From Promethearchaeia archaeon (GTDB lineage Archaea; Asgardarchaeota; Lokiarchaeia; Sigyniarchaeales; SOKP01): a stretch of DNA of 64,000 nt. The first letter of the stretch is position 1, and each line of letters begins with the position of its first letter. Below, in pieces: positions 7,953 through 60,238 of this stretch. Position numbers and translations under genes: made by a program. The notes beneath the pieces were generated by a model. That model had not been told where the DNA came from and made no database searches. It worked only from the letters and a program-made list of their open reading frames with translations. Where the stretch lies: positions 1-64,000 of the forward strand of contig JAHQWG010000046.1 of the NCBI GenBank assembly GCA_029856045.1, read 5' to 3'.

Positions 7953-8915
7953 TTGTTTGTAATGGAAAAAAAAGAAAGGATTTTTTTAACTCAAATCATC
8001 AGTCTTGTAATATTAGTTGTTCTTATTTTGGTAATTTTATCAACCCCTTCTCTTTTTGAATTCACTTGGAACGAAATGTTGAGGGATCTTATACCTGGAG
8101 CAGAATATTTCTTTCGGATTGTCACTGAATTAGGAGGTACTTACGTTTATTTTGCAATCTTTTTCATTGTATTTTGGGGGATTAATAAAAATGGTGCTAA
8201 ATCTTTATTTATTATTTATATATCATCAAATTTTGTGAATTGGTATGCGAAATCAATAATTGCAAATGAAAGACCTCCTCAATCTGAATGGATTCTAATT
8301 GGAGCATCTCATCTAAGCACACCTAGTGGACATGCTATGAGTTCAAGTGTTTTTTGGGGATTCTCTGCCATGCAAATTAAAAAATGGTTAATGTGGATTA
8401 TCTCTGTAATCATAATCATTCTTGTTGGATTATCTAGAATATACCTCGGGGTTCATTGGTTAGGAGATATTCTTACCGGATGGCTTTTTGGTACAATTAT
8501 ACTTATTCTGATCTGGATATTCGATGAACCTCTACGTTCTCGTTTAACAAGATATAAACCATTCATTATTTATCTTGGAATGGCTATTTTTGGTTTTATT
8601 GTAATGATTCTCACTGAAATATTCTTTTCTCAAACATCTAACTTTGGAACTCCCGGTGGACAAATGATTGGTTTAGGAATAGGACTCGCACTTGAAAATA
8701 AATATGTGGATTTTAAAACAAACCACGAATCTGGTGAAAAATGGCGAGTAGCTTTAAGGGTATTGATTGGATTAATTATAATTCTAATCATCTTTTTAGG
8801 TTTAGATGCAATAATTCCATCGGAAATCTTTTGGTTAGTTGCAATTGAATATATAGTGTTGTTTATTGTGGGAATATTCCTCTGGCCATTGATATTTAAA
8901 AAAATTGGCTTGTGA
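7953..8915 (+). CDS. PAP2 family membrane phosphatase
   Basis: KSIIANERP, PSGH and SRIYLGVHWLGD motifs; multiple TM helices. Confidence 0.9.
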   Translation: MFVMEKKERIFLTQIISLVILVVLILVILSTPSLFEFTWNEMLRDLIPGAEYFFRIVTELGGTYVYFAIFFIVFWGINKNGAKSLFIIYISSNFVNWYAKSIIANERPPQSEWILIGASHLSTPSGHAMSSSVFWGFSAMQIKKWLMWIISVIIIILVGLSRIYLGVHWLGDILTGWLFGTIILILIWIFDEPLRSRLTRYKPFIIYLGMAIFGFIVMILTEIFFSQTSNFGTPGGQMIGLGIGLALENKYVDFKTNHESGEKWRVALRVLIGLIIILIIFLGLDAIIPSEIFWLVAIEYIVLFIVGIFLWPLIFKKIGL

Positions 8916-8943
8916 TTTAATAATAATAAAAAAGAAATAAGAG

Positions 8944-9044
8944 GGCCTAGTAGGGGAATTGAACCCCTATCTAAGGATTCACAGTCCTCAATAATAATCA
9001 TTGAGCAATGAATACTCATTTCTAACCGTTGTACAAACTAGGCC
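8944..9044 (-). tRNA. tRNA-His(GUG) with encoded G-1 and a 28-nt intron at non-canonical position 22/23 (intron 8994..9021)
   Basis: Minus strand: G-GCCTAGT...ACTAGGC-C acceptor; anticodon arm GAGGA-CTGTGAA-TCCTT; T arm AGGGG-TTCAATT-CCCCT; the D stem GTAC/GTAT forms only after removing 28 nt. Confidence 0.9.
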
Positions 9045-9076
9045 ATTTTTTGAAAAGTAATGGATGAAAGCTAGGA

Positions 9077-9089
9077 TTTTTAATCTTTC
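9077..9089 (-). promoter_or_regulatory. Candidate BRE/TATA promoter of tRNA-His
   Basis: Minus strand GAAAG-ATTAAAAA, ~33-45 nt upstream of G-1. Confidence 0.4.
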
Positions 9090-9182
9090 ATTCTAAAAAA
9101 AATTTGCGTGAAAATTTAAAGAAAAAAATAAAATTAAAAATATAAGATTATTATTTTCCTTCTTCAAAAAGAAAAAAAAATA

Positions 9183-10049
9183 TTAATAGTTCCTTGGAAG
9201 TTGCATAATTTCTTTGGCTTCATCCAAATCTGCGATTTCCCGATCCAATTCTTTTGCTAGGCGAACACATTTTTCTACCATTTGTTTATTACTCTCAGCA
9301 AGTATCCCCTTCGAAATATAAATATTATCTTCTAAACCACATCTTACATTACCTCCTAAAAGGATAGCTTGAGTAATTAACCGCCATTGATGTCTGCCAA
9401 TCCCAGTGATACACCATGTAGCCCTTGGAATCTTTTCGATAAGATTCTTCATATACATGAGATTTTCCATTGTTGGAGCCGCTCCTCCTAACACGCCTAG
9501 TACAATATTATAATTTAAAGGATCATGGAAATGTCCTTGGTCCCTTACAAAGAGGATATTATTTATTTGTCCAACGTCATATACTTCAAATTCAGGGGCG
9601 GTTCCCGCTTCTTTAAATGTATCTCCAAAATGTCCCAAAGTTTCAAATTTATTTGGAAATATAATTTCCTTTAAAATTGTTGTTCCTCTTGCAAGAGCAA
9701 AATTCATTGATCCAGAATTTAGGGAACCCATATCAGGTTTGCATATAGGTATATGTCCCAGTCTTTGCTCAAGAGTCATGCCTGGAGCCCCCCCAGTAGA
9801 TAAACATAGAAGTACATCACATTTTTCTTTTACTCTTTTGACAATGTCCTGAAACACTTCAGGAGAAGCAGTTGGTGTGCCATCAGGCATTCTAGCATGT
9901 ATATGGACCATTGTAGCCCCAGCTTCATAACAAGCATAAGCGTCATTTGCTAATTCTTCCGGAGTATGTGGAAGCGCTGGATTTTGTGCTCGCGAAGTGA
10001 GTGAACCAGTCAAAGCGCAAGTTATAACTAATTTTTCCAATATTATCAC
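9183..10049 (-). CDS. kce: Beta-keto acid cleavage enzyme (Kce/BKACE, DUF849); likely start TTG at 10040
   Basis: ITCALTG, NPALPHTPEE, HIH metal motif, STGG, RCGLEDN. Confidence 0.9.
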   Translation of the reverse strand: MIILEKLVITCALTGSLTSRAQNPALPHTPEELANDAYACYEAGATMVHIHARMPDGTPTASPEVFQDIVKRVKEKCDVLLCLSTGGAPGMTLEQRLGHIPICKPDMGSLNSGSMNFALARGTTILKEIIFPNKFETLGHFGDTFKEAGTAPEFEVYDVGQINNILFVRDQGHFHDPLNYNIVLGVLGGAAPTMENLMYMKNLIEKIPRATWCITGIGRHQWRLITQAILLGGNVRCGLEDNIYISKGILAESNKQMVEKCVRLAKELDREIADLDEAKEIMQLPRNY

Positions 10050-10253
10050 CTTATGATTTCAAATTTTTTGAGTTAAATTTCGTTATTTAAATTAAGAATT
10101 TTTTGTTGTTAGATTTATTTTTTCTTTTATTTCATATAAATATTGTCTTGTTTTATCTGGTTAAAATTAAGGTTGCATTAAAATTCTGTTTATTAGGCAC
10201 TCAACTTTTTACTAGATAACAGAACTAATTAAAAATAAAAAATAAAAAAACAA

Positions 10254-11213
10254 TTATATTGGTCTGAAATATTCAATATCCGTAATTCTCTTTCTTGGTT
10301 TATCTTTAAAAACAGCTTCAACTCTCATTCCCGGTTTCAACTTTTTTGGATCGCTTTCTTTTATTATGTGCACTATTTCTGTGTTAGAGCCATCAAGTGT
10401 GATTAATGCATAAGCAAAGGGTGGTTCTAAAGGCATAACGGGAGTAGAATGTGATACAACTGTAAAACCCTTAACTGAGCCTTGATTACTAACTTCAACC
10501 CACTCATCCATTTTTTCAAAGCAATTAAAGCATATCATCTTGGGCGGAACATAGACCTTACCACACTTTGGGCACTTAACCCCCATGATTTTATTATTTT
10601 TACCAATTTCAGTTATAAATTTTTCAACATAAGCTCCAGCGACATGCTTATAAGGAACCTTTATTCTGCCTCTAAATACTTTCTCTTCAATATCTTCAAC
10701 CATTTTTTCAACCTTTTTTGGTTTTGGCTTTTCTCTAATTATTTTATAATATGGAATATCTCCTAAATTACCTTCTCTTACTTCTTTGAAAACTGCTTTA
10801 ACTCGCATCCCAACCCTTAATTTTGTATGATCTACCTCATCAATGAAATGCATAGTATAAGTATCGACACCATCTAATTTAAACAATCCATATCCGTAAG
10901 GAAAAGGTCTTAATCCCCCTGTTTGAGGATCTACAAAAGGATAATTAACCACAGTAAATCCTACTAAAGTTCCAGTGTCATATAATTCAATAAGTCGTGT
11001 CATTTCCACCATACAATCCGCGCAGACTGCTCGAGGTGGGAAATATACTTTTCCACATTGTGGGCATTTACTTCCGTGTAATTTTTTATTCTCCTTTAGT
11101 TCTTTAAAAAATTGAACTGATAATTTCCCCATAGAATATCTGTAAGGAAGGTCAGTTTTCCACTTAATTTGAAATACTTTTTCTTTATCTTTACCTCTAC
11201 TCATGATAATCAC
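10254..11213 (-). CDS. Tandem DUF35 protein (two Zn-ribbon + OB-fold units); likely start ATG at 11204
   Basis: CPQCGKVYFPPRAVCADC...RVGMRVKAVF and CPKCGKVYVPPKMICFNC...KPGMRVEAVF. Confidence 0.9.
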   Translation of the reverse strand: MIIMSRGKDKEKVFQIKWKTDLPYRYSMGKLSVQFFKELKENKKLHGSKCPQCGKVYFPPRAVCADCMVEMTRLIELYDTGTLVGFTVVNYPFVDPQTGGLRPFPYGYGLFKLDGVDTYTMHFIDEVDHTKLRVGMRVKAVFKEVREGNLGDIPYYKIIREKPKPKKVEKMVEDIEEKVFRGRIKVPYKHVAGAYVEKFITEIGKNNKIMGVKCPKCGKVYVPPKMICFNCFEKMDEWVEVSNQGSVKGFTVVSHSTPVMPLEPPFAYALITLDGSNTEIVHIIKESDPKKLKPGMRVEAVFKDKPRKRITDIEYFRPI

Positions 11214-11214
11214 C

Positions 11215-12381
11215 TCAAAGATTCCTTTCCTTGGAAAGAATCATTATTTCAGTCCATAAACTCCCACCAAATCCCATTCCTAAAGCTTTTTCTACATCAG
11301 GAACTTGTCGTTTTTCTCCTCGACCCATAACTTGGATTGCAGCCTCTGCAACACGGATTAATGCCGTTGCACCAATGGGATTAGTACTCAATACACCTCC
11401 TGATGGATTAACAGGTAATTCTCCACTCATTTGAGTAATACCCTCATCCAGTAATTTTCCACCTTCTCCAAATTTGCAAAAACCTAATGCTTCAGTCCAA
11501 GCAAGCTCACTCCAAGAAGTGGGTTCATATATTTCTGCAACATCCAAATCTTTTACCGGATCTGTGATTCCAACCTTTTTATAAGCTTTTTTAGATGCAA
11601 TTGTTGCAGTTGGAAGATCGAACATTGCTTCATCAGTACCATAAGTGTAATAATGGGCAGTTTCTACAGCCTGAATCCATGCAGGATTATCGGTAATGTT
11701 TCTAGTTTCTTCTTCGTTGGCATAAATAACTGCACATGCACCCTCGCTCTGCGGACAACAATCATGAAGCCTTAATGGATACGAAATAGTTTGGGATTTC
11801 ATAACATCTTCGACTGTAAGATTAGGCATTTTTAAATGAGCAAATGGATTATTCGCAGCGTTTCGACGATTTTTTACGGTAACCCTTGCAGCTTGTTCAG
11901 GAGTTATTCCGTATTTATGTTGATACATACTGGCCATAAGAGCCAGAGGACCTAAGGCTCCTGCTAAAGAGGGTCTTTCCCATACTGGATCGAAAGCTGT
12001 GATTATTCCTGTTGTTGCTCCGCCTTCTTGTAACTTCTCCCAGCCTATAATTAATACTTTATTATATATTCCTGATGCCACATTATGGTATCCGCATATT
12101 GCTAATGATGATCCTGTAGTTCCTCCTGTTGCAACCTTAACAACTGGTTTTAAATAGCCTGGTGCCGCATCTATTCCACACCACATCTCCGAAAAGTTAA
12201 TTCCTTCAAAATGATCCATATTTCCGATTATTACTGCATCTATATCAGCAGGCATAAGTTGAGCATCATCAAGAGCCATTCTTACGGCCTCATATATCAT
12301 TTCAGGGATATTAACATCCCTTCTTTTGCTTCTATGCTTTGTTTGTCCTATACCTACTATTGCAACATCATGTTTTCCCAT
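11215..12381 (-). CDS. Thiolase-fold protein, Ltp3-like retro-aldolase (no catalytic Cys)
   Basis: IVGIGQTK, KVATGGTTGSS in place of CASG, GWEK, AEIYEP, VNPSGGVLSTNPIGATA. Confidence 0.8.
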   Translation of the reverse strand: MGKHDVAIVGIGQTKHRSKRRDVNIPEMIYEAVRMALDDAQLMPADIDAVIIGNMDHFEGINFSEMWCGIDAAPGYLKPVVKVATGGTTGSSLAICGYHNVASGIYNKVLIIGWEKLQEGGATTGIITAFDPVWERPSLAGALGPLALMASMYQHKYGITPEQAARVTVKNRRNAANNPFAHLKMPNLTVEDVMKSQTISYPLRLHDCCPQSEGACAVIYANEEETRNITDNPAWIQAVETAHYYTYGTDEAMFDLPTATIASKKAYKKVGITDPVKDLDVAEIYEPTSWSELAWTEALGFCKFGEGGKLLDEGITQMSGELPVNPSGGVLSTNPIGATALIRVAEAAIQVMGRGEKRQVPDVEKALGMGFGGSLWTEIMILSKERNL

Positions 12382-12384
12382 ATT

Positions 12385-13536
12385 CTATACACCTCCATCA
12401 TTTCCAAATATTAGAACACAGTTTCCTTGGGAACAAATTCCATTCATTCCATTTGCTAATCCAATTTTAGCATTCGGGATCTGTCTTTTATCTGCTTTAC
12501 CCATTAATTGCAGAGCAATTTCAGCTACCCGAATTAAACCATTTGCCATGGTTGGATTACTTGATAGAACACCTCCCGAAGGATTAACAGGTATATTTCC
12601 AGTCATTTCAGTTTCACCACTTTCAATAAATTTTCCACCTTCTCCTTTCCCACAGAATCCTAATGCTTCGTAACTCATCAATTCATGATATGAAAACATA
12701 TCATAGACTTCTGCTACATCAATTTCTCTGATTGGATCAGTAATTCCAGCCATTTTATAAGCTTCTTTAGCAGCTAATTCTAGTCCAATTAGATCCGTCA
12801 TTGTTCTATGCCCTAAATAATAAGCATCAGTACAACTACCGTATCCCATAAGCCAAACAGGTGAGTCTGTAAATTTTTTAGCAATCTCTTCTTTTGTTAA
12901 AAGCATTGCAACTGCACCATCAGAGAGTGGTGGTAAATCAAGTTCTTTTAAAGGATATGCTATCATTGGAGAGAAAAGGACATCTTCAATAGTAATTGCT
13001 TCTTGTAAATGTGCATATGGGTTATTGAGTGCATTTTTTCGATTCTTTATAACAACCTTAGCTGCTTGCTCCTCTGTAATTCCATACTTATTTACATACA
13101 TATTAGCCATTAAACCGGCAGCAGATATTTGATCTAATCCTAAAGCTCTTTGATAAAATGGATCAAAAATGGAATTATTTATAAGATATTGATCTCCTTC
13201 AGAACATTTGCAGTGGGATACAACCATAACTGTATCATAATACTCTGAAAGAATTCTCATAGCTCCATATATATATGCAAAAGCTCCATCTCCCGAAACT
13301 CTTGATTCTGATTTTCCAATAGCTCCCACTGCATCTATAATCGCCATATTAGCGATGGTCCTTCCATCGTTGAAATCGTTAGAGCTTGTTATAATGCTTC
13401 CAATATCATCTTTTGTGATCCCTAGATCATCCATAAGCTTCTTAACAACCTCAAAAACAAGTTCTGAATATGTCTGATCGATTTTATCTGCTTCATATTT
13501 TGTTTGGGCAATTCCTACAATTGCTACTTTATCCAT
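12385..13536 (-). CDS. Thiolase-fold protein, Ltp4-like retro-aldolase partner (no catalytic Cys)
   Basis: LGITKDDIG...SSNDFNDGR...IDAVGA...ESRVSGDGAFA; AEVYDMF; VNPSGGVLSSNP. Confidence 0.8.
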   Translation of the reverse strand: MDKVAIVGIAQTKYEADKIDQTYSELVFEVVKKLMDDLGITKDDIGSIITSSNDFNDGRTIANMAIIDAVGAIGKSESRVSGDGAFAYIYGAMRILSEYYDTVMVVSHCKCSEGDQYLINNSIFDPFYQRALGLDQISAAGLMANMYVNKYGITEEQAAKVVIKNRKNALNNPYAHLQEAITIEDVLFSPMIAYPLKELDLPPLSDGAVAMLLTKEEIAKKFTDSPVWLMGYGSCTDAYYLGHRTMTDLIGLELAAKEAYKMAGITDPIREIDVAEVYDMFSYHELMSYEALGFCGKGEGGKFIESGETEMTGNIPVNPSGGVLSSNPTMANGLIRVAEIALQLMGKADKRQIPNAKIGLANGMNGICSQGNCVLIFGNDGGV

Positions 13537-13881: not shown

Positions 13882-14703
13882 ATGAATGAATTTAATTTTC
13901 AAGATATCCTTTATGAGAAGGAGGATAACGGTATTTGCACGGTTACTTTTAACAGACCTGAAAGAAGAAATGCAGTGACTTACTTAACCTTTTTCGAAAT
14001 TCATAAGGTATTAGAAGATATGGAAAAGGATAAAAATGCTAAGGTCTTAATAGTAACTGGAAACGAAGAGGGTAATGCCTTCACATCAGGTGGTTATTTT
14101 GACCCAAAAATTTTTAAAAATCTAAAGGATGAAATTAAGCAAGAAATCGATTTAATGGATATTGCTCAAAAAAAATTATGTATGAAACTATGGAAATTTG
14201 ATAAGCCAGTCATTGCAGCAATTAATGGATTAGCCATAGGAGGAGGAATAACAATGCCCTTAGCAGGTGCTGATCTAATTTTTATGGCTGAAGATGCATG
14301 GTTAGGATTTTATTTTGGAAAGAGAGCCATTATACCCGAATTTGGAGCCAATTTTATTTTACCATTTTATTTAGGGTTTCAAAAAGCAAAAGAAATTGTA
14401 TATTTTGGCGAAAAAATATATGCTCAAGAAGCTTATGAACTTGGACTTGTAAATAAAGTCTTACCTAAGGAGAAACTAATTCCCTACACTCGAGAACAAG
14501 CTTTACGACTGATTCCTCCCAAGGGTCCATGTTTATCAATAAAATTAATGAAAAAAACCATGCATTCTTATTTCCTTGAGATCATAGATAAGACTTTAGA
14601 TTTAGAAAATAGAGGACTTAGAAAAGCTTTTACTTCATATGATTTTAGAGAATCGATGAACGCACTTAAAGAAAAAAGAGAACCAGCATTTAAAGGGAAA
14701 TAA
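13882..14703 (+). CDS. Enoyl-CoA hydratase/isomerase family protein
   Basis: TFNRPERRNA, KPVIAAINGLAIGGG, IIPEFG, EKREPAFKGK. Confidence 0.9.
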   Translation: MNEFNFQDILYEKEDNGICTVTFNRPERRNAVTYLTFFEIHKVLEDMEKDKNAKVLIVTGNEEGNAFTSGGYFDPKIFKNLKDEIKQEIDLMDIAQKKLCMKLWKFDKPVIAAINGLAIGGGITMPLAGADLIFMAEDAWLGFYFGKRAIIPEFGANFILPFYLGFQKAKEIVYFGEKIYAQEAYELGLVNKVLPKEKLIPYTREQALRLIPPKGPCLSIKLMKKTMHSYFLEIIDKTLDLENRGLRKAFTSYDFRESMNALKEKREPAFKGK

Positions 14704-14862: not shown

Positions 14863-15273
14863 GTGAAAAAAATGAAAATATTGACTGAAGAATGGGTTGA
14901 AGCTTTTGGTAAAGCAATTAATGATAATCCAAATTATAAACCGTCGGCGCTTACCTGGGAAGGTGATATGCTTCTTATAATTGAACCTAGTGGGAAATTG
15001 GATCATGAAGTCAGGGTATTTATTGGACTCTACCATGGTGAATGTACAGGGACTAGACTATTAAAAGAAGGAGAAGAGGTAGACACTCCATATATTCTAT
15101 CTGGTCCTTATGATAATTTTGTGAGAGTTATGAATAAAGAATTTGATCCTATTCAAGGAGTCATGTCTGGTAAGCTAAAACTAACTGGTGATATGGCAAA
15201 ATTGATGAGACATGTTCAAGCAGCTAAAGAAATTGTGAACAGTCTCCAAATGTTCGAAACAGAATTTTTATAA
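14863..15273 (+). CDS. SCP2 sterol/lipid-binding domain protein
   Basis: FDPIQGVMSGKLKLTGDMAKLM C-terminal signature. Confidence 0.85.
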   Translation: MKKMKILTEEWVEAFGKAINDNPNYKPSALTWEGDMLLIIEPSGKLDHEVRVFIGLYHGECTGTRLLKEGEEVDTPYILSGPYDNFVRVMNKEFDPIQGVMSGKLKLTGDMAKLMRHVQAAKEIVNSLQMFETEFL

Positions 15274-15344
15274 AAAACAAAAGAATTTTCATTTAACGTT
15301 TTATTTTTTTAATAGAACAAAAAAAAACCTCATAGGTAAAAAAG

Positions 15345-16544
15345 ATGTGGTACTTTTATAGTCCTAATATTATATATGGTGAGGATGCACTAAATTTTTT
15401 AGAAAATATTCCGGGAGATAAATGTTTTATTGTCACTGATAAAGTAATGGAGGAGTTGGGTTATTTAAAAATTTTAACAGATAAACTGGAAAAATACGGA
15501 AAACAGTATAATGTATATAATGGAGTACTCCCTGATCCTCGAGAAACTTACGTAGCAGAAGCAAGAGAAATGTGCAATTCTTATACTCCCGATTTAATTC
15601 TTGCTTTAGGAGGAGGTTCGGTTATGGATGTTGCAAAAATGGTTTGGTGCTTCTATGAATTTCCAGAGCTTTCACTTGATGATATCCATCCATTTAGACC
15701 CGACCTTCATAATATAGGCAAAAAAGCAAAATTAATAGCCATACCAACAACTTCAGGAACTGGAGCAGAAACAACATATGCCGCACTTATATCAAAATTT
15801 GAAAATGATCTCTGGAAAAAGTTTTTATATGCTCATAAAGGAATAGTTCCTACATATGCTATATTAGATCCAGTTTTTCCCGTAGGAATGCCTTCTAATT
15901 TAACTGCTGATACAGGTTTTGATGCATTAGCCCATGCGATTGAAGGAATGGTCTCTGTTTGGAGAAATGAGTTCAGTGATGCATTAGGAGTTAAAGCTAT
16001 TGAATTGGTTTTTAAATATCTGCCAATTGCCATTAGAGAAGGTAAGAATATGGAAGCTAGAGATTACATGCATCAAGCTGCAACTATGGCTGGATTAGCC
16101 TTTGGTAATGGAAATCTTCATATAGGACATGGAATGGGTCATAGTTTGGGAGCAATTTTTCATATTCCTCATGGAAGGGCAGTTGGTGTTGTGCTTAGTT
16201 ATGTTACACAATTCTGTTTAAATAATCCTGATGAAAAAGATAAATCTTTAGAAATTTATGCAAAATTAGCGAAACAGTTAGGATGGTCAAACTGGGATGA
16301 AGATAATAAAAAGGCAGCCTTTACTGTAATCGAGAAAATTAAAGAACTCCAAAAAGAAGTCGGAATTCCGAATAATATTCAAGATTTAGGAATTTCTCGT
16401 GAAGATTTTGATAAGAATTTAGATATGCTAATAACTTTATGTTATGAAGATGCAACTATTGGAATGGTCCCAAGAAGCGTAAATCCAGAGATATTTAAAA
16501 ATTTATTTACATATGCTTATAACGGGAAAGATATCGATTTTTAA
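15345..16544 (+). CDS. Iron-containing alcohol dehydrogenase
   Basis: GGGSVMDVAK, IPTTSGTG, DALAHAIE, GHGMGH, HIPHG. Confidence 0.92.
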   Translation: MWYFYSPNIIYGEDALNFLENIPGDKCFIVTDKVMEELGYLKILTDKLEKYGKQYNVYNGVLPDPRETYVAEAREMCNSYTPDLILALGGGSVMDVAKMVWCFYEFPELSLDDIHPFRPDLHNIGKKAKLIAIPTTSGTGAETTYAALISKFENDLWKKFLYAHKGIVPTYAILDPVFPVGMPSNLTADTGFDALAHAIEGMVSVWRNEFSDALGVKAIELVFKYLPIAIREGKNMEARDYMHQAATMAGLAFGNGNLHIGHGMGHSLGAIFHIPHGRAVGVVLSYVTQFCLNNPDEKDKSLEIYAKLAKQLGWSNWDEDNKKAAFTVIEKIKELQKEVGIPNNIQDLGISREDFDKNLDMLITLCYEDATIGMVPRSVNPEIFKNLFTYAYNGKDIDF

Positions 16545-16636
16545 ATAATTTTATTTTATTTTTTCCTTTTTTATCCATAATTGTAAATTCCCATCAAAAA
16601 GACAAAAAATAAAAATTAAAACAGAAATATCTTTTT

Positions 16637-18190
16637 ATGCAAGAAAAAATTTTTGATGAGAACCGAGATATTTCTACTTATGAAGTTATTGTGATTGGTG
16701 CTGGGCTTGGTGGACTCGGTGCTGCTTGTCAACTTGCTCTTTTAGATAAAAAAGTTTTGTTGCTCGAAAAGCACAATGTACCTGGAGGATTCGCAACTTC
16801 TTTTGTTAGGGGTCGATTTGAGTTTGAAGGAGCCTTACATGAATTAAGTGATATTGGGAATGAAACCAATAAAGGAGGTCTTTATAGATATTTAGAGAAA
16901 ATTGGGATACTCCCCGAGAAACTTAAGTTCAATTATGTTCCAGAGTTTTATCGCAGTGTGTTTTACGATGGATATGATGTTACCATTCCATTCGGTGTTG
17001 AGGAATATACTAATAAATTGATAGAACTATTTCCTGCCGAAAAGAAGGGAATAGAAGAATTTATGGAAATGGTTCAAGCAGTGTTAGCGGGGATTCAGTA
17101 TGTTGCATCTAAAGGTGGTAAATTTTCACAAGGTGAAATCCTTAAAGAACATCCATGGCTTGCACGCGTCTCAGGTATCACGCTTCAAGAACTTTTCGAT
17201 AAATTCTTCAAAGACCAAAAATTAAAGTGTTTAATAGCTCAACTATGGGGATATCTTGGTTTACCAGCGAATAGAATAAATGCATATGCATATATTGCAA
17301 TGTTAATATTTTATTTGAAATGGGGAGCAGCCTTTCCCATAGGACGATCTCATGCATTAACAAGTGCTATGATAAAATCCTTTGAAGATTTAGGAGGAAA
17401 AGCAAGGTTCAATGCCTTGGTGAATCGTATCCTTGTGGAAAATGGACGAGTTGCTGGTGTTGAACTCCTTAATGGAGAAATTTATCACAGTAAGGCAGTT
17501 ATATCAAATGTCAATCCGATATGCACAGCAATGAAAATGATACCACAAGAAATTGTGCCAGAAAGTTATAAAAAGAGAATTTACGCTCCAGAAATCGGAG
17601 TCTCTGGATTTTCAGTTTATATTGGATTAAATGCATCGCATAAAGAATTGGGATTTAATACTCATGAAACTTTTATTAATGAAACCTACGATACGGTACA
17701 AGCTTTCGAGACCTTCAGAAAATTAGAATCACCACAATATTTGGTTGCAGCATGCTATAATCACATTGATGAAACTATATCTCCTCCTGGAACAACACAA
17801 CTTGTTCTCACCACTCTCCAAATGGGCAAAATTTGGCAGAGTGTTTCTCCCGATCAATACCACAATATTAAAGATGATCTCGCGGATAAAATGATTGCGA
17901 TGGTGGAAAAATATCTCTGCTCAGATATACGCGATTACATTGAAGTAGCAGAAGCAGCAACCCCTCTTACATATTATCGATACTCAAAAAATATAGAAGG
18001 TGCTATTTATGGATATACTCAAGACATCATGAATGGTCCAATGCTTCGATTAAAAAGCAGAGGAGCCATTCCCGGACTATATCAAGCAGGTGCTTGGACA
18101 AACTTTGGTGGAGGATATTCAACTACAATTATGGGTGGCAGAATTGCCGCTGGAATGTATCTAAATGATATTAGGGAGGGAAAGTGGTAA
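16637..18190 (+). CDS. FAD-dependent oxidoreductase, phytoene desaturase/retinol saturase family
   Basis: IGAGLGGL, EKHNVPGG..TSFVRGRFEFE, ATPLTYYRY..N.EGAIYG, GLYQAGAW. Confidence 0.85.
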   Translation: MQEKIFDENRDISTYEVIVIGAGLGGLGAACQLALLDKKVLLLEKHNVPGGFATSFVRGRFEFEGALHELSDIGNETNKGGLYRYLEKIGILPEKLKFNYVPEFYRSVFYDGYDVTIPFGVEEYTNKLIELFPAEKKGIEEFMEMVQAVLAGIQYVASKGGKFSQGEILKEHPWLARVSGITLQELFDKFFKDQKLKCLIAQLWGYLGLPANRINAYAYIAMLIFYLKWGAAFPIGRSHALTSAMIKSFEDLGGKARFNALVNRILVENGRVAGVELLNGEIYHSKAVISNVNPICTAMKMIPQEIVPESYKKRIYAPEIGVSGFSVYIGLNASHKELGFNTHETFINETYDTVQAFETFRKLESPQYLVAACYNHIDETISPPGTTQLVLTTLQMGKIWQSVSPDQYHNIKDDLADKMIAMVEKYLCSDIRDYIEVAEAATPLTYYRYSKNIEGAIYGYTQDIMNGPMLRLKSRGAIPGLYQAGAWTNFGGGYSTTIMGGRIAAGMYLNDIREGKW

Positions 18191-18194
18191 AATC

Positions 18195-19382
18195 ATGATG
18201 GAAGATATTAAAAAATATCAAAAAGCCGAAAAATTAAAAAAATGGCGAGATCAAGTCGAACCAATACCTTGGTATTACGATGGGCTAGAAAATCTGTGCA
18301 ACCGACTCCATCCCCAGCAACAACTGCTAAAAATCACCGACATAGAACAACTCTCAAGAGATACTAAATTGTTTCGATTAGTTTCCGCAAATCCTAAGCA
18401 ATTAATAGCACCATTTCGTGCCGGTCAATATATTGGTCTTACAATAGAAATAAATGGTGTCCGAACAAGTCGCCCATATTCGCTTGTATCATCCCCGAAT
18501 CAATTAGCATACTATGAATTGGGTATTAAAAAAAAAGAGGAAGGATTTGTAAGCCCATACTTATTTGAAAATATTAAAATTGGAGATATTCTTGAAGCCA
18601 CCGAACCCTTGGGAAACCTTTACTATAATCGACTCTTCCATGGGATAAACTTAGTATTTATTGCAGGTGGTTCCGGTTGTACACCTTTTATCTCAATGTT
18701 GCGAGATATTTCAGAGCGAGAGATTCCTCTTAATGTCTGGATGTTATTCGGGTGCTTAACTGAGGAAGATATTTTATTTCGAAATGTATTAGAAGATATC
18801 CAAAAACGACGATCAAATATCAAAGTTGTAAATATTCTATCGGAAGCATGTTCTGAATGGACCGGAGAATCCGGATTTATCTCTAAAGACAAGATTTTAA
18901 AAGTAATTGGCTCCATCGAGAAAAAATTCTTTTATATTGTTGGGAATCGACCAATGTATCATTTTGTTTTAGATGAATTAAAAGAATTGGGTGTCCCACA
19001 ACATCGTATCGCACATGAGGCGTTCGGAGTGCCAGATGACATAACTCAGATTATGGGATGGCCAGCAGAGATTGATACATCTAAAAAAGTTCAAATTACT
19101 ATTGATTTTAGGCGATATGGAAAGATCGAACAAAAAGTATTTGAAGCATCATGTACAGAGCCCATATTAAACAGTCTCGAACGCGCAGAACTAAAAGAAC
19201 TCGAAATTAAAAGTGGGTGTCGTTCTGGGGAATGTGCTCTCTGCAGGACAAAACTTGTATCCGGTAAAATTTTTATACCACCTGAAGTAACAACCAGAGA
19301 GGCCGATAAAGACTATAATTTTATCCACCCATGTATATCTTATCCACTCACCGACATTCACTTAAATTTAAATGAAACCTAA
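18195..19382 (+). CDS. FNR-type reductase with C-terminal [2Fe-2S] ferredoxin (PaaE/KshB-like architecture)
   Basis: FRAGQY, RPYSLVS, GFVS, IAGGSGCTPF, CRSGECALC...C; ATG at 18195 just after the upstream stop. Confidence 0.85.
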   Translation: MMEDIKKYQKAEKLKKWRDQVEPIPWYYDGLENLCNRLHPQQQLLKITDIEQLSRDTKLFRLVSANPKQLIAPFRAGQYIGLTIEINGVRTSRPYSLVSSPNQLAYYELGIKKKEEGFVSPYLFENIKIGDILEATEPLGNLYYNRLFHGINLVFIAGGSGCTPFISMLRDISEREIPLNVWMLFGCLTEEDILFRNVLEDIQKRRSNIKVVNILSEACSEWTGESGFISKDKILKVIGSIEKKFFYIVGNRPMYHFVLDELKELGVPQHRIAHEAFGVPDDITQIMGWPAEIDTSKKVQITIDFRRYGKIEQKVFEASCTEPILNSLERAELKELEIKSGCRSGECALCRTKLVSGKIFIPPEVTTREADKDYNFIHPCISYPLTDIHLNLNET

Positions 19383-19538
19383 AGCTTTTCTTTTTTATTT
19401 CTTTTTTTAATCGTTTTTCAATTGAGATCAAAATTAAGAAAAAAGTGATTCAAATTATCAAGTTTTAAATTTAATTTGATCTAATAATATAGTATTATCT
19501 TTTTTTAATTACTAAAAATAAAAAATGATGATTTAAAA

Positions 19539-21236
19539 GTGAGTGTAGAAAAATTTTGGTTAAAATCATATGATAAACATGTCCCTGAAACCCTAACCTA
19601 TTCAAATGATGATGTCGGAACCGCTTTGAGCAAAGCGATGAATAGATTTCCAGATAGAATTGCTTGTCATTTCATGGATTATGCGATGACTTATAAAGAA
19701 TTAATGGAATTATCTCAAATATTTGCCTCGTTTTTGCAAAAAAATGGTTTAAAAAAGGGTGATGTTGTTTCTGTAAATCTTGCTAATATGCCCCAATACT
19801 TAATCGCTGTTTTTGGGACTTATCTAGCAGGTGGTACTGTTGCTGGATGCTCTCCCCTCTTAAGTGCTGATGAAATGGCTTTTCAATTAAACGATAGTAG
19901 TGCAAAATTTCTAGTCACTATGGATATTATTTACGCAAAAAGAATGCCCCAAATTCTGGATAATTTACCAAAACTCGAAGTTATCATTCCTACAAATATT
20001 TCGGAATATATGGGGTTCTCTAGTTTTAAAGTATTTATGGGCAAGTTAATAAAAAAAATCCCAAAGGGGAAAATGAACCCATGGCCAGGAAAAAAAATTG
20101 TTCCTTTTCAAGAAGTAATGACCACTCCAATCGATATAAAAAAAGTTGAAATTGACCCTAAAAAAGATTTAGCGTTAATTCAATATACAGGTGGGACCAC
20201 TGGAACTCCCAAAGGAACTGAAATTACACATTTTAATTGGATAGCGAATATGCATCAATTTGATGTATGGCTCAAGAGAGAAATAGGAACTGATGTTGTT
20301 CTTTGTGCTTTTCCTTATTTCCATATCGCCGGATTCTTTGTTGGGTTATTCTTAACGTATATTTCAGCCTCATCTATTATTATAGCAAATCCACGTGACA
20401 CAGATCACATTATACATGAAATGATTGATAAAAAAATTACTGTTTTTGGAAATGTGCCTACTTTATTTTTAATGGTTCAAAGTAATCCAAAATCTAAGGA
20501 AATCCCAGATGAAATATTAGATAACATTACTTTATATGTCTCTGGAGCTGCACCCTTTCCAGCTGAAGCAGTTAGAGATTTTGAAAAAGATTTTCATTCG
20601 GCAAATAAATTCGTAGAGGTTTATGGTATGACCGAAACTGCAGTTTTGGCTACGGTAAATCCTGCATTAGGAAAGAAGAAGATTGGAAGTGTTGGACTCC
20701 CATTACCCGATACAGAGATAAAACTTGTGGATGTAGAAACTGGAGAACAGGTTGAACTCGGTAACCCTGGTGAAGTATTGATAAAAGGACCACAAGTAGC
20801 ACGAGGATATCATAATAAACCTGATGCTACAGCAGTAACTTTCACTGAGGGTTGGATTCACACGGGAGATGTTGGTATTTTTGATGAAGAAGGATATTTA
20901 AGAATAGTTGACCGCACAAAAGACATGCTGAGTGTAAGTGGATTTAAGGTTTATAGTGTGCACGTTGAAGATGTAATGACTAAACATCCAGACATACAAT
21001 TAATGGCAATTATTGGACTCCCTGATAAAGACAGACCTGGAAGCGAAATTGTGAAAGCTGTAATTCAATTAAAAGAAGGAATTGAAGCAAGCGATAAAGT
21101 GAAAGAAAATATTAAGAAATTTGCACAGGAGAATCTGGCAAAGTATGAAGTTCCAAAACAATGGGATTTCCGTGATGAACTCCCATTAACATCAATTGGT
21201 AAAGTGCTGAAAAGAGCACTTAGAGAAGAAAAGTAA
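19539..21236 (+). CDS. Long-chain fatty acid-CoA ligase
   Basis: QYTGGTTGTPKG, YGMTE, TGD, RIVDRTKD, GKVLKR. Confidence 0.92.
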   Translation: MSVEKFWLKSYDKHVPETLTYSNDDVGTALSKAMNRFPDRIACHFMDYAMTYKELMELSQIFASFLQKNGLKKGDVVSVNLANMPQYLIAVFGTYLAGGTVAGCSPLLSADEMAFQLNDSSAKFLVTMDIIYAKRMPQILDNLPKLEVIIPTNISEYMGFSSFKVFMGKLIKKIPKGKMNPWPGKKIVPFQEVMTTPIDIKKVEIDPKKDLALIQYTGGTTGTPKGTEITHFNWIANMHQFDVWLKREIGTDVVLCAFPYFHIAGFFVGLFLTYISASSIIIANPRDTDHIIHEMIDKKITVFGNVPTLFLMVQSNPKSKEIPDEILDNITLYVSGAAPFPAEAVRDFEKDFHSANKFVEVYGMTETAVLATVNPALGKKKIGSVGLPLPDTEIKLVDVETGEQVELGNPGEVLIKGPQVARGYHNKPDATAVTFTEGWIHTGDVGIFDEEGYLRIVDRTKDMLSVSGFKVYSVHVEDVMTKHPDIQLMAIIGLPDKDRPGSEIVKAVIQLKEGIEASDKVKENIKKFAQENLAKYEVPKQWDFRDELPLTSIGKVLKRALREEK

Positions 21237-36578: not shown

Positions 36579-37463
36579 CTATTTTATTTTCTCCAAGAGG
36601 TTTTCTGTATTGTTATATAAAATATCTTGTTTTTGTTCATTAGAGATTGGTAGAGTTAATATCTTATCGATTTCGATTTGAATTGGGGATGTTATGGGTG
36701 CGTCAGAGCCAAATAGAAGTCGTTTATGACCGACTGTTCGAATTAAACTTAATATTGCAAAACTGACTGAACATGAAGTTTCAAAAAAGATATTTCTATA
36801 TTGTTTTAAGCTTATACCTACATCTATAGCATATTCCATGCAAAATCCGGCATGCCCAACGATAATTCTTAAATTTGGAAATTGTTTTGCAAGTTTTGCC
36901 ATATCCCTAGTGGATATTCCGCTAAAAAAGGGTGTTTTGGGAGTGGAGTGAATATAAAAGATCAATTTTTTATCATATTCTTGCATAAATGAAACTAATT
37001 TAATTATATCTTTAGGGATCTTTATTAAGTGAATACCTGAATGTATTTTTACGCCACAAAACCCTTTTTTAAAATGGTCTTCTAAAATTTTATAATCGGT
37101 GTCTTCTTCTTTAGGTTGAATTTTTGGATTGAACCAAAATACTTTAAAAAATCTCTCTGGAGCTTTCTTAGCAATGTCTATAATATCTTGATGATCTAAT
37201 TGACCTCCCTCTGCAAGACTTTTGCGAAATTCAAGCATCTTCTCGAGTTTTTGTTCTTCATTTAATTCGTTTGATTCACTATCAGCTAATTTTAAGTGAG
37301 CTGTTGGTCTAGCTCTCCTATTAGTTGTTGTGATTAATGCTTTTTCCACTTGAAATCGATCCATATATTCAATTATATCCTTGCTAGGTTTCATAAATGT
37401 TCCGTAGCTATGGAGGTGTGCATCAAATATTTTAAAAGATGTGGGATTTATCAAATAATACAA
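36579..37463 (-). CDS. Amidohydrolase superfamily TIM-barrel protein
   Basis: DAHLH, GVKIH, IH, GHAG, LLFGSD. Confidence 0.85.
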   Translation of the reverse strand: MYYLINPTSFKIFDAHLHSYGTFMKPSKDIIEYMDRFQVEKALITTTNRRARPTAHLKLADSESNELNEEQKLEKMLEFRKSLAEGGQLDHQDIIDIAKKAPERFFKVFWFNPKIQPKEEDTDYKILEDHFKKGFCGVKIHSGIHLIKIPKDIIKLVSFMQEYDKKLIFYIHSTPKTPFFSGISTRDMAKLAKQFPNLRIIVGHAGFCMEYAIDVGISLKQYRNIFFETSCSVSFAILSLIRTVGHKRLLFGSDAPITSPIQIEIDKILTLPISNEQKQDILYNNTENLLEKIK

Positions 37464-37602
37464 CTTTTTTCTTAGATGGTATTATTTCTTAAAAATTAGC
37501 CTAGTTAATTAAATTTTTTGAACAATTAAGGAGATTTGAAAATTTAAGTTTTAATTAATTTTTTTTATTAATAAGTTTTTTATTTTAAATAGAAATTAAT
37601 CA

Positions 37603-38592
37603 GTGAAAAGTATGAATGACGTTAAGTATAAGATAATCGATTCTTTGTGTTATGTCCCAACTGAAGAAGTTTTTGTTGATCTTTTAGTGTCATTGCCACC
37701 TCAGATGGCAAGATATTTAAGAGATGTTTTTGGTCCAAGGGTTGCTCCTTTGTTGGGTATTTCAGCTGAAGAACTCTACAATTTGAAGACATCAAAGAAT
37801 GCATTTGAACTTAAAAACGCCCTTAAGCCTTATTTACCGAAAATAAGGAAATTAACTTCAACTTTAAATGATTTTGTCGTGCAGCTCGATAAAATGGGAG
37901 TTGAAAAAGCGGTTATTTTTAATCTAGATGAAGAAACACCAAGTGGAATTGCTGGTCTTCCTAATGATTATTATGCTGGGATTGTTAAAGAGTATCCAAA
38001 TAAATTCATTGGATTTGCTGGTATTGATCCTTTAAAAGGAATGGATGCTGTAAGAGAGATTAAAAGATCTTATGATTTGGGTCTTAGAGGTGTGGCTGTT
38101 CGGCCATTTATGTTCCAAATACCACCGACTCATGCGAAAATGTATCCAATTTATTCTACATGCGTAGAGCTTGATATACCTATTTGGTTTCATCTTTCTA
38201 TAAATTTTTCGACTAATTCGATGGAAGTTGAGAGACCAATCTATTTAGATATAGTTTGTCAGGATTTTCCTGAATTAAAAATTATTGCAGGACATGGTGG
38301 TTGGCCTTGGGTGAATGAACTGGTTGCCGTTGCATGGCGCAATCCAAATATGTATATTGACATTGCTTCTTACGTTCCTAAGTATCTAGGAATGAAAGGG
38401 ACGGGATGGGAACCACTTATTAATTTAGGAAATTCAATTCTACAAGATAAAATTTTGTTTGGTTCAACTTGGCTTTTTATGGGCTTATCAATTAAACAGT
38501 TAGCGGATGGTGTTATGGAATTACCTCTAAAGGAAGAGGTTAAAAAGAAATGGTTATATAGCAATGCTGCGAAACTTTTAGGCATTGAGTAA
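37603..38592 (+). CDS. Amidohydrolase_2 family protein
   Basis: FIGFAGIDP, PIWFH, IAGHGGWPW, KILFGS; the N-terminal HxH is absent (DSLCY). Confidence 0.85.
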   Translation: MKSMNDVKYKIIDSLCYVPTEEVFVDLLVSLPPQMARYLRDVFGPRVAPLLGISAEELYNLKTSKNAFELKNALKPYLPKIRKLTSTLNDFVVQLDKMGVEKAVIFNLDEETPSGIAGLPNDYYAGIVKEYPNKFIGFAGIDPLKGMDAVREIKRSYDLGLRGVAVRPFMFQIPPTHAKMYPIYSTCVELDIPIWFHLSINFSTNSMEVERPIYLDIVCQDFPELKIIAGHGGWPWVNELVAVAWRNPNMYIDIASYVPKYLGMKGTGWEPLINLGNSILQDKILFGSTWLFMGLSIKQLADGVMELPLKEEVKKKWLYSNAAKLLGIE

Positions 38593-38659
38593 TAGATTCT
38601 TTTAAAATTTTTTTAAAAAAATAAAAATTAATAATAAAAAAATCAATTTAGAGTTTATT

Positions 38660-40705: not shown

Positions 40706-40723
40706 CTAAATTTAAGATTTCAT

Positions 40724-59638: not shown

Positions 59639-60232
59639 CTATAAAGTAAATCCTTCAGGTAATTCTGATTCGGGTGTTCCTACTGGGACCCACGAGATAT
59701 CCATAATAGTGTATGTTGGTTTTTTTGTTTGAAAGATTGGTAATACTCGCATACCAATCTTTGGTTCACCTACTGAAAGATAACCCATAAAGATTGTGCA
59801 TACATCTTTGAATTCCACATTAATAAATTTAATTGGCTTTTTTAATGTATTAAAGGCGCCTGATCGTTCAGTAATTATAAAAGAGTGTATCATTGCCGTT
59901 TTCTTTGCTATATCAGTTATATCTATTACCGTATTTTTTCTAAGACAATCAGGACAATAAATTCTGAATGGCATAAATATGGAATCTTTTGATTCACATT
60001 TAGGATTATCACATCTTGAAGCCATTAATTTTCCTTTACTAAGTGATTCAAAAAATATTGCTTCTCCGCCATAGCTATGAATATAAGTCATGTCTCGTGG
60101 ATTAGTTATTCCACATAGTTTTCCATTATCATCAAATATAGGTGTGTTAGGCTCTATTATATGAAATTTACCTTTAATTTTGTATCTGCCATTTTTTACG
60201 GAAACCCGTCCAACATCATTTTCGCTTTTCAT
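59639..60232 (-). CDS. DUF35-like Zn-ribbon/OB-fold protein
   Basis: FFESLSKGKLMASRCDNPKC...PFRIYCPDC...PKIGMRV. Confidence 0.85.
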   Translation of the reverse strand: MKSENDVGRVSVKNGRYKIKGKFHIIEPNTPIFDDNGKLCGITNPRDMTYIHSYGGEAIFFESLSKGKLMASRCDNPKCESKDSIFMPFRIYCPDCLRKNTVIDITDIAKKTAMIHSFIITERSGAFNTLKKPIKFINVEFKDVCTIFMGYLSVGEPKIGMRVLPIFQTKKPTYTIMDISWVPVGTPESELPEGFTL

Positions 60233-60238
60233 GATTTT

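Follow-up and report, generated by a model that had tools for sequence, protein, structure and literature searches.

An Ltp4/Ltp3-type thiolase-fold pair with a tandem DUF35 protein and an adjoining BKACE gene: a candidate aldol-lyase module in an Asgard archaeon

The window – a stretch of 64,000 nucleotides – comes from a Loki-type Asgard archaeon, an anaerobe of marine sediment, with an AT-rich genome (about 32% GC). Four minus-strand genes run from position 13536 to 9183 in the order thiolase-like A, thiolase-like B, tandem DUF35 and BKACE (kce), separated by 3, 1 and 204 nt, and further genes of interest lie on the plus strand:

9183..10049, minus strand: BKACE-family enzyme, 288 aa (PF05853, 344 bits)
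10050..10253, minus strand: DUF35-kce spacer, 204 nt, read directly
10254..11213, minus strand: tandem DUF35 protein, 319 aa, with two zf-ChsH2 and two OB_ChsH2_C stretches (Pfam)
11215..12381, minus strand: B, Ltp3-type thiolase-fold subunit, 388 aa (Pfam, NCBIfam, tree, invariant residues)
12385..13536, minus strand: A, Ltp4-type thiolase-fold subunit, 383 aa (Pfam, NCBIfam, motifs, tree, profile scores)
13882..14703, plus strand: divergent crotonase-fold gene, 273 aa (ECH_1, 167 bits)
14863..21236, plus strand: co-conserved arm encoding SCP2, an Fe-ADH, a CrtI-family flavoprotein, an FNR-[2Fe-2S] reductase and a long-chain-type acyl-CoA ligase (Pfam, NCBIfam)

The open reading frames agree with the original prediction of a tightly coupled thiolase-fold pair running into a double-DUF35 gene with kce following on the same strand, and the 1-3 nt gaps that it described were read directly as 3 and 1 nt. 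At the A-B junction the TAG stop of A is followed by 3 nt and the ATG of B, with GGAGGTG just 5′ of that ATG; at the B-DUF35 junction the TGA of B is followed by 1 nt and a GTG, and the likelier DUF35 start is an ATG 9 nt past this GTG, preceded by GAGGTGA. The likelier BKACE start is a TTG at 10040 behind AGGTGA. Four further runs, three of which come from other studies, yielded contigs that span kce, the spacer and the DUF35 gene as well as the DUF35 domain junction, all without indels.

Both A and B match Thiolase_N and Thiolase_C_1 (133 bits in A, 109 bits in B), and alignments to PDB structures together with a MAFFT table show that neither has the nucleophilic Cys, the acid/base Cys or the His of the GHP motif. 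The nucleophile loop reads VSGDGAFA in A and VATGGTTGSS in B, the HDCF motif is replaced by YDMF and YEPT, and GHP by SNP and TNP, respectively. Having lost these residues, the pair cannot act as thiolases, and the public annotation 'acetyl-CoA C-acetyltransferase' and the counting of Asgard ketothiolase/DUF35 pairs as fatty-acid synthesis potential (bioRxiv 10.1101/2024.07.05.601840) do little for a role as ordinary ketothiolase/DUF35 pairs in acetoacetyl-CoA formation, fatty-acid synthesis or beta-oxidation, which is most improbable for two subunits that also split off from the genome's own Cys-bearing paralogues. Archaeal ketothiolase complexes, exemplified by the acetoacetyl-CoA thiolase-HMG-CoA synthase-DUF35 complex and the fatty-acid synthase complex of S. 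acidocaldarius (bioRxiv 10.1101/2024.07.05.601840), share with this locus an SCP2-type thiolase fold and a DUF35 docking protein, but their thiolases retain both catalytic residues, Cys and His, and carry out Claisen chemistry, of which A and B are incapable. The best solved-structure match of both subunits is PDB 4YZO (172 bits for A, 168 bits for B), an uncharacterised 'putative acyl-CoA acyltransferase' that also lacks the nucleophilic Cys but, unlike A and B, retains the His of the HD motif; no description of its function was found in the literature searched.

The resemblance to actinobacterial Ltp3 and Ltp4 that had been proposed from the N-termini holds in phylogeny, profile scores and sequence signatures alike. 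The reference proteins were taken from Nocardia farcinica, where the locus is syntenic with Rv3520c-Rv3523, and from S. clavuligerus, and they pass the NCBIfam cut-offs (PRK07937, 595/550 bits; PRK08313, 750/713 bits). In a tree with these references, A joins Ltp4 (98/100) and B joins Ltp3 (100/99), while Cys-bearing paralogues and an Ltp2-type protein (YDHF) fall outside both clades. Reciprocal profile scores agree, the A-type profile outscoring the B-type profile by 75 bits on Ltp4 references; A and Ltp4 have in common a 2-residue deletion plus DGA, and B and Ltp3 share AEIYxPxSW and NPIGA. Identity is about 29% between A and Ltp4 and about 40% between B and N. farcinica Ltp3. Both nonetheless remain below the NCBIfam cut-offs: A scores 290 bits against PRK08313 and 199 bits against PRK07937, and B scores 380 bits against PRK08313 (cut-off 514) and likewise misses the PRK07937 cut-off.

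A Tyr in the E-x-Y motif had been claimed for both subunits together with the loss of Cys, and both features are present in A and B here, but only in B is the Tyr invariant. Tyr285 of B (E-x-Y-x-P) occurs in 19 of 19 B/Ltp3-type sequences, drawn from archaea, Thermodesulfobacteriota, Acidobacteriota, Chloroflexota, Spirochaetota and Actinomycetota, and is one of 45 invariant residues that also include H182, N334 and Y153. The corresponding position in A orthologues is Y, F, S, D or H – it is His in Ltp4 – and only 25 residues of A are invariant, this one not among them. The restriction of the invariant Tyr to B suggests that B is probably the catalytic subunit and A probably a non-catalytic partner. 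Between Asgard lineages B keeps 75-95% identity, a level that speaks for a constrained function, and its bacterial counterparts are 52-60% identical.

The DUF35 protein consists of two halves, D1 (about 10719-11213) and D2 (about 10254-10718), each with a Cys4 zinc ribbon and an OB fold and 40% identical to one another (E 2e-37). D1 clusters with the first stand-alone duf35 gene (SH-aLRT 96), and D2 with the second stand-alone duf35 and the bacterial upstream duf35 (86). Because the two units are separate genes in nearly all relatives, the tandem gene is a local fusion, found only in the window and the related loci L009, L010 and L040. The A-B arrangement itself is not due to chance, since A lies directly upstream of B in every locus with enough upstream flank among 80 related loci. 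A-B and two distinct DUF35 units are encoded together with 1-10 nt gaps in Asgard archaea and five bacterial phyla, a combination conserved among Asgard lineages and anaerobic bacteria.

The locus thus resembles the actinobacterial Ltp3-Ltp4-tandem-DUF35 system (M. tuberculosis Rv3523, Rv3522, Rv3521 type) in having adjoining Cys-less SCP2-thiolase-fold paralogues and two DUF35 domains. However, the gene order is A-B-DUF35 rather than DUF35-Ltp4-Ltp3, both zinc ribbons are intact whereas those of N. farcinica are degenerate, and the DUF35 fusions appear to have arisen separately; of the proposed tandem-DUF35 parallel, the two domains stand, but the equivalence of the fused genes is doubtful. 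No BKACE was found within the 20 kb and 11 kb fetched around two actinobacterial loci. The setting also differs: the actinobacterial system belongs to sterol catabolism, whereas the organism here is an anaerobic archaeon, with no steroid-ring catabolic genes in the window.

Upstream of A, the divergent crotonase-fold protein lacks both canonical hydratase Glu residues, the alignment showing GGGITM and GFYF at the places where two-Glu hydratases carry theirs; copies near the module in Asgard loci are 68-89% identical. The two-Glu hydratase that trails the module in other Asgard archaea has no orthologue in this genome. The adjacent arm – with NCBIfam matches to crtI_fam (145 bits, below cut-off), a PaaE-like reductase and long-chain ligase models – adjoins the module in most Asgard loci, and its ligase, flavoprotein and FNR trio is also present in two bacterial loci (L072 and L074). 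Genes for handling alcohols or aldehydes recur near modules: an Fe-ADH in this window, a Zn-ADH beside the second module of the genome, and aldehyde:ferredoxin oxidoreductase at other loci.

The BKACE protein matches PF05853 over its full length and has the HxH and GLED metal-site motifs, in common with the family that includes the 3-keto-5-aminohexanoate cleavage enzyme Kce. It differs in belonging to a separate, genus-restricted lineage, in reaching the cut-off of none of the four NCBIfam BKACE models that it matched (302 bits against the lysine-fermentation Kce equivalog, cut-off 382) and in having no lysine-fermentation genes nearby; in the PDB its best match is 3lot (223 bits), with Kce 2y7d at 214 bits. 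No carboxylase able to make a beta-keto acid is encoded near the module.

There is a substantial, if smaller than even, chance that kce lies beside the module without any functional tie to A, B and DUF35, transcribed on its own and brought here by a genus-level rearrangement. It is set off by the 204-nt spacer, which opens directly behind the DUF35 stop with an oligo-T tract (T runs of 7, 6 and 5), has a TTTATAT box about 90 nt 5′ of kce, and gave no match to any Rfam family; in so AT-rich a genome, the tract and box are weak evidence for a separate transcript. Its lineage is shared with L010 only, and L009, which belongs to a sister genome and is 95-98% identical over A, B and DUF35, carries other genes downstream. 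Against this, two other BKACE lineages flank the module at 29 other Asgard, one other archaeal and three bacterial loci, and the genome's second module is flanked in this way too; two of the five full BKACE copies in the genome adjoin its two modules. The three module-adjacent lineages, which occur in differing arrangements, also form a group (SH-aLRT 86) that excludes the genome's unlinked copies. Neighbourhood conservation with kce, proposed as a check, is seen as recurrent BKACE-module adjacency, though not for the particular paralogue in the window.

On balance, we favour by a modest degree of confidence a module in which A, B and the DUF35 protein form an Ltp4/Ltp3-type aldol-lyase complex, with BKACE in the same pathway. 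By analogy with Ltp2-ChsH2(DUF35) and Sal-Shy(DUF35), the complex would centre on an A-B heterodimer flanked by two docked DUF35 domains, one per side, and would split a 3-hydroxyacyl-CoA into a short acyl-CoA and an aldehyde or ketone. The active site would lie in B, with Tyr285 as the base taking a proton from the beta-hydroxyl, and A would be a degenerate partner that shapes the pocket. Ltp2 and Sal, proven retro-aldolases, likewise combine a Cys-less thiolase fold, a DUF35 partner and a first-position motif Tyr, a residue proven to act as the catalytic base in TcLtp2 (YDHF) and CtSal (YDCY) (PMC12329534). They are homodimers, in contrast to the proposed heterodimer, and the Ltp2 structure 6ok1 scores only 86-101 bits against A and B. 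A published description presents Ltp3-Ltp4 as a heteromeric aldol-lyase that acts on C24-branched sterols (PMC6678751); since the literature searched held no biochemical demonstration of retro-aldolase activity for the Ltp3 and Ltp4 clades, the grounds for the proposed chemistry are genetic, together with the parallel to Ltp2 and Sal.

The same architecture could instead support other chemistry, as a decarboxylase, hydrolase, isomerase or biosynthetic aldol/Claisen-type condensing enzyme, and we regard this as unlikely but worth weighing. The known aldolases have a second catalytic residue, their general acid, that is missing here: Asn stands in place of Ltp2 Tyr344, and Sal Cys304 is replaced by Pro in B and by Met in A. 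TbSLP (YDCF), an SCP2-thiolase-like protein with Tyr for His, shows only slow malonyl-CoA decarboxylation (PMC12329534), and the adjoining crotonase is a non-canonical hydratase. Aldol chemistry is favoured by the invariant Tyr, the DUF35 partnership and the Ltp3/Ltp4 kinship, and the neighbours (ligases, acyl-CoA dehydrogenases, ETF, CoA transferases) are catabolic. Less probable still is that A and B are pseudoenzymes forming a scaffold or lipid/acyl-CoA-binding platform that organises the crotonase, BKACE or SCP2, as the loss of all canonical catalytic residues from both subunits and the docking role of DUF35 in archaeal ketothiolase-based complexes (bioRxiv 10.1101/2024.07.05.601840) might suggest; yet the 45 residues invariant across phyla include Tyr285 at a proven catalytic position, and Ltp2 and Sal, homologues without the nucleophilic Cys, are active enzymes (PMC12329534). 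The retro-aldolase reading thus seems to us the best one.

In this organism, the aldol-lyase module would be set in a lipid/acyl-CoA catabolic island with a CoA ligase, a CrtI-like flavoprotein and its reductase, SCP2 and an alcohol dehydrogenase, and BKACE would act in the same pathway by converting a beta-keto acid and acetyl-CoA to an acyl-CoA and acetoacetate. Sterol and hopanoid side chains, suggested at the outset as substrates, are unsupported; the CrtI-family flavoprotein, SCP2 and long-chain ligase loosely fit an isoprenoid or other lipid acid, and a 3-methyl-branched isoprenoid acyl-CoA is our leading, if distinctly tentative, guess. Whatever its substrate, the pair probably cuts carbon chains beyond the reach of ordinary beta-oxidation.

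Open reading frame (ORF) calling and direct reading of the junctions bear out the arrangement originally predicted at 13536-9183: four minus-strand genes, of which A, B and the DUF35 gene follow one another with small gaps, and kce, encoding a beta-keto acid cleavage enzyme (BKACE), comes next. The genes and the arm that diverges from A are as follows:

13536..12385, minus strand: A, 383 aa by ORF calling, thiolase fold (Pfam)
12381..11215, minus strand: B, 388 aa by ORF calling, thiolase fold (Pfam)
11213..10254, minus strand: tandem DUF35 protein, 319 aa, two zinc-ribbon plus OB (DUF35/ChsH2-type) units
10049..9183, minus strand: BKACE (kce), 288 aa, PF05853, 344 bits
divergent from A, plus strand: crotonase, SCP2 protein, Fe-ADH, CrtI-family flavoprotein, FNR-[2Fe-2S] reductase and long-chain-type CoA ligase (Pfam/NCBIfam)

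Three nucleotides separate the TAG stop of A from the ATG of B, which has GGAGGTG upstream, and a single nucleotide separates the TGA stop of B from a GTG of the DUF35 gene; the likelier start of the latter is an ATG 9 nt past this GTG, behind GAGGTGA. Both junctions are translationally coupled. The spacer between the DUF35 gene and kce is 204 nt long; it begins, right at the DUF35 stop, with runs of 7, 6 and 5 T and also contains a TTTATAT box, all of which are weak signals because the genome is 32% GC. Contigs of four other runs, three of them from other studies, extend without indels from kce through the spacer and across the full DUF35 gene, so both the fused DUF35 reading frame and its adjacency to kce are real. 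Just downstream of kce, a weak Rfam tRNA-clan match (14.8 bits) lies at 8951-9030 on the minus strand; ARAGORN reports no tRNA at 8800-9200.

We aligned A and B with SCP2-type thiolases of known structure and within a set of 53 sequences; neither protein has the N-terminal CxS-loop cysteine, the acid/base cysteine of HDCF or the histidine of GHP that mark a Cys-dependent SCP2-type thiolase. The nucleophile loop reads VSGDGAFA in A and VATGGTTGSS in B, the HDCF equivalent is YDMF (A) or YEPT (B), and the GHP equivalent is SNP (A) or TNP (B); the loss of the nucleophilic cysteine and the tyrosine in the E-x-Y motif thus hold for both window proteins, as had been proposed. Judged by these sequences, the units described here cannot be thiolases. 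In Ltp2 and Sal, which are DUF35-bound thiolase-fold aldolases, the tyrosine occupying this position of the motif has been proven to act as the base (PMC12329534). This first-motif tyrosine (YD[HC][FY] in the Ltp2/Sal type) is present in both A and B and is invariant in the B type only, with Y, F, S, D or H found among A orthologues. Invariant residues number 45 across B-type proteins (including Y285, H182, N334 and Y153) and 25 across A-type proteins. The second catalytic residue of Ltp2 and Sal has no match in the aligned A and B: the Tyr344 position of Ltp2 is Asn in both, and the Cys304 position of Sal is Pro in B and Met in A. Some B genes are themselves interrupted: the orthologues in two related Asgard loci, L034 (~10160-10195) and L043 (~8045-8080), carry a 30-nt insertion with in-frame stops within the invariant IGNM-DHFEG motif, at a point that falls between Asn54 and Met55 in B (window 12219/12220) and at which the window and a third locus, L016, have no insertion. 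A phylum search found two stops in each of four otherwise intact B genes.

All that is known of the Ltp3/Ltp4 type comes, to our knowledge, from the genetics of actinobacteria that degrade sterols. References were taken from plasmid-collection records that are in truth actinobacterial chromosomes, and were picked by NCBIfam cut-offs and Rv3520c synteny. In Nocardia farcinica, the gene for an Rv3520c-type F420 oxidoreductase (TIGR03559, 508 bits) is followed by those for a 340-aa tandem OB protein, then a PRK07937 member (595 bits) and last a PRK08313 member (750 bits); Streptomyces clavuligerus has the identical trio of tandem OB protein, PRK07937 member and PRK08313 member. This order matches Rv3520c-Rv3523, which identifies PRK07937 with the Ltp4 type and PRK08313 with the Ltp3 type. 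Ltp2 is represented by a PRK07855 member, 68 kb away, that carries YDHF. The actinobacterial loci have the same content as the window module – two adjoining paralogues with two DUF35 domains beside them – in a different gene order.

The best model for both window proteins is NF006180/PRK08313, on which B scores 380.5 and A 290.4 bits, both below the 514-bit cut-off (N. farcinica and S. clavuligerus Ltp3 score 750 and 713 bits); on NF005924/PRK07937, A scores 198.7 and B 119.1 bits, both below the cut-off of 419 bits (actinobacterial Ltp4 references reach 550-595 bits). A maximum-likelihood tree (LG+C20) unites A with its Asgard and bacterial orthologues, one paralogue from the same genome and both Ltp4 proteins in one clade (98/100), and B with its orthologues, the matching paralogue and both Ltp3 proteins in another (100/99), leaving the Cys-bearing paralogues of the genome and the Ltp2-type protein outside both. 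Because Ltp4 is a long branch, a caveat on the placement of the A clade, profile scores and loop signatures were used as two independent checks. With profiles built without actinobacterial sequences, the A-type score exceeds the B-type score by 75 bits for Ltp4 and the B-type score exceeds the A-type score by 114 bits for Ltp3, while unrelated paralogues score about equally on the two. The former nucleophile loop of both A and Ltp4 is shortened by 2 residues and contains DGA, and AEIYxPxSW and NPIGA are common to B and Ltp3. The likeness to Ltp3 and Ltp4, at first proposed from the N-termini, is therefore upheld by both tree and profiles, and A and B group with Ltp4 and Ltp3 rather than with Cys-bearing thiolases.

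The pair is widespread. B is 75-95% identical in MAGs labelled Promethearchaeota, Hermod-, Odin-, Jord- and Freyarchaeota, and 52-60% identical in Thermodesulfobacteriota (including the cultured Desulfatibacillum alkenivorans), Acidobacteriota, Chloroflexota and Leptospirales; A directly precedes B in every related locus with sufficient flank. B-like genes (E <= 1e-100) occur in 42 of 301 sampled Asgard genomes, concentrated in the family of the window genome (33/68) and one other (5/6), and at this threshold they were not found in several large families of the sample. The DUF35 component is usually encoded by two separate genes of ~162 and ~149 aa, which in Asgard come after B, and which in bacteria either do so too or bracket the A-B pair; among the related loci, the fused gene is confined to the window, L009, L010 and L040. 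The N-terminal half of the window protein (D1) groups with the first stand-alone gene (SH-aLRT 96) and the C-terminal half (D2) with the second and with the bacterial upstream gene (SH-aLRT 86); the actinobacterial halves place with neither. Nearly all relatives keep the two units as separate genes, so the fusion is local. The original prediction of an Ltp4-Ltp3 module thus stands for two thiolase-fold and two DUF35 units, but its tandem gene is a local variant that may not correspond to Rv3521, and locus comparison identifies two thiolase-fold proteins plus two distinct DUF35 subunits as the conserved feature. A literature search found no paper describing Ltp3/Ltp4-type modules in archaea or anaerobes.

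Beyond the window, at ~67500-80050 of the same contig (G000:C46; L116 3517-16043), lies a second Ltp4/Ltp3-type module whose proteins A2 and B2 are ~40% identical to A and B, in the order duf35-A2-B2-duf35. It is preceded by genes for a two-Glu crotonase, an acetyl-CoA-synthetase-like ligase, two CoA-transferase subunits, a BKACE and an NMO-type reductase, and followed by a Zn-ADH.

The window kce matches PF05853 over its full length (344 bits versus a cut-off of 24.8), with VHIHAR and GLED aligning with PDB 3lot, and reaches 302.2 bits on the lysine-fermentation Kce equivalog NF052387, below its 382-bit cut-off. The genome has five full BKACE genes, two of which adjoin its two modules; the second of these (contig 72889-73743) lies after the two CoA-transferase subunits and upstream of duf35-A2-B2-duf35 and the Zn-ADH. 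Within the fetched flanks, a BKACE occurs at 30 of 42 Asgard loci (the window counted) and 4 of 39 other loci, and it is absent from the DNA fetched around both actinobacterial loci. The BKACE tree resolves three lineages linked to the module. One, the window type, is confined to the window and L010. The second consists of 322-aa proteins; their genes sit downstream of the module in Thermodesulfobacteriota and in one other archaeal MAG, and in Asgard they lie upstream on the same strand as the module. The third, of 299-aa proteins, is encoded upstream and divergently in Asgard and includes the second module-adjacent copy of this genome. The association of BKACE with the module is thus recurrent, in at least three arrangements, but the window kce itself is genus-specific and is missing downstream in L009, a locus 95-98% identical over A, B and DUF35 with other genes in its place. 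No DUF35-BKACE fusion was found among proteins of at least 505 residues, or as a long open frame in 22 Thermodesulfobacteriota genomes (17 from one order), and a literature search returned no paper linking BKACE and DUF35.

The divergent arm accompanies the module in most Asgard loci, and the ligase-flavoprotein-reductase trio is also found with it in two bacterial loci (L072 and L074). The gene for the CrtI/carotenoid-isomerase-family flavoprotein overlaps that for the PaaE-like FNR-[2Fe-2S] reductase (16637-19382, plus strand), a pair conserved with the module in Asgard and 36-38% identical in L072 and L074. Further recurrent neighbours are acyl-CoA dehydrogenases, an OYE-type dienoyl-CoA-reductase-like protein, CoA transferases, aldehyde:ferredoxin oxidoreductase, MaoC and ETF. 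The window crotonase (13882-14703, plus strand) lacks both canonical hydratase Glu residues (GGGITM, GFYF) and, instead of being a hydratase, may belong to an isomerase, lyase or decarboxylase type; in other Asgard a two-Glu hydratase gene comes after the DUF35 genes, and this genome lacks an orthologue of it (best match 35% identical). We conclude that the operon was remodelled in this genus, with the DUF35 genes fused, the hydratase lost and a different BKACE added.

Elsewhere in the window, 59639-61660 (minus strand) encodes a 473-aa PRK06365-type thiolase-fold protein (670 bits, cut-off 695) that has KTGGATGG without the nucleophilic cysteine, HDAF, and a retained histidine; next comes a 197-aa protein that matches no Pfam or NCBIfam model, and 17 Asgard loci have this pair upstream of the module. 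The window also contains four dispersed genes for AMP-forming acyl-CoA ligases (19539, 31799, 34768 and 44591), and at 36579-42754 two Amidohydro_2 genes adjoin two GH3 glycosidases. The Amidohydro_2 family includes reversible aromatic-acid decarboxylases.

On balance we lean towards a heteromeric retro-aldolase in which B would be the catalytic subunit, as the best reading of the tyrosine that is the proven base in Ltp2 and Sal together with the kinship to Ltp3 and Ltp4. One weak point is that the known general acids of Ltp2 and Sal are not conserved here. Ltp3-Ltp4, described as an aldol-lyase, is required for degradation of C24-branched sterol side chains according to the genetics of Wilbrink 2012, as represented in the passage of PMC6678751 that cites it; in the scheme set out there, carboxylation, hydration and Ltp3-Ltp4 cleavage yield a carboxylate that has to be re-activated (PMC6678751). 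By our own reasoning this carboxylate would be a beta-keto acid, the substrate class of BKACE, and a chemical link between BKACE and the module is plausible. No carboxylase is encoded nearby, and the window holds no biotin carboxylase gene; the one hydantoinase-B-type gene elsewhere in the genome provides no evidence for carboxylation.

More speculatively, and in our estimate improbably, the module and BKACE could form the core of an undescribed oxygen-independent route, shared by Asgard and sediment anaerobes, for acyl chains on which beta-oxidation stalls, with 3-methyl-branched isoprenoid acids from phytol or archaeal lipids as the most attractive candidates. A hydratase would generate a tertiary 3-hydroxy-3-methylacyl-CoA, from which the Ltp4/Ltp3-type aldolase would release acetyl-CoA together with a methyl ketone (or with a beta-keto acid, if carboxylation came first), and BKACE would convert the beta-keto acid to the next acyl-CoA and acetoacetate without ATP. 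A literature search on how the phytol-derived C18 ketone might be degraded anaerobically turned up nothing usable.

As for the substrate of the favoured retro-aldolase, an isoprenoid or other lipid acid agrees loosely with the CrtI-like flavoprotein, SCP2 protein and ligase encoded beside the module. An aryl-propionyl-CoA substrate is a lesser alternative, and a hydroxycinnamate or phenylpropanoid, suggested by the GH3 and Amidohydro_2 genes at 36.5-42.8 kb, is of low probability. The sterol or hopanoid side chain first proposed is rejected as unsupported, with no steroid-ring catabolic genes detected in the window by Pfam or NCBIfam.

Public annotation labels these genes acetyl-CoA acetyltransferases, and the KT/DUF35 pairs of Asgard genomes have been taken, in a preprint that counts them, to indicate a potential for fatty-acid synthesis. 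With at least two such units in this genome predicted to be incapable of Claisen chemistry, Asgard metabolic reconstructions that count them as thiolases would be wrong on this point. The two-plus-two architecture is ancient and widespread in anaerobes, and offers many soluble orthologues for a first biochemical or structural characterisation. Its recurrent pairing with BKACE, with oxidoreductases for alcohols or aldehydes and with a CrtI-like flavoprotein suggests that difficult lipid chains in marine sediments are processed by an anaerobic pathway as yet unstudied.
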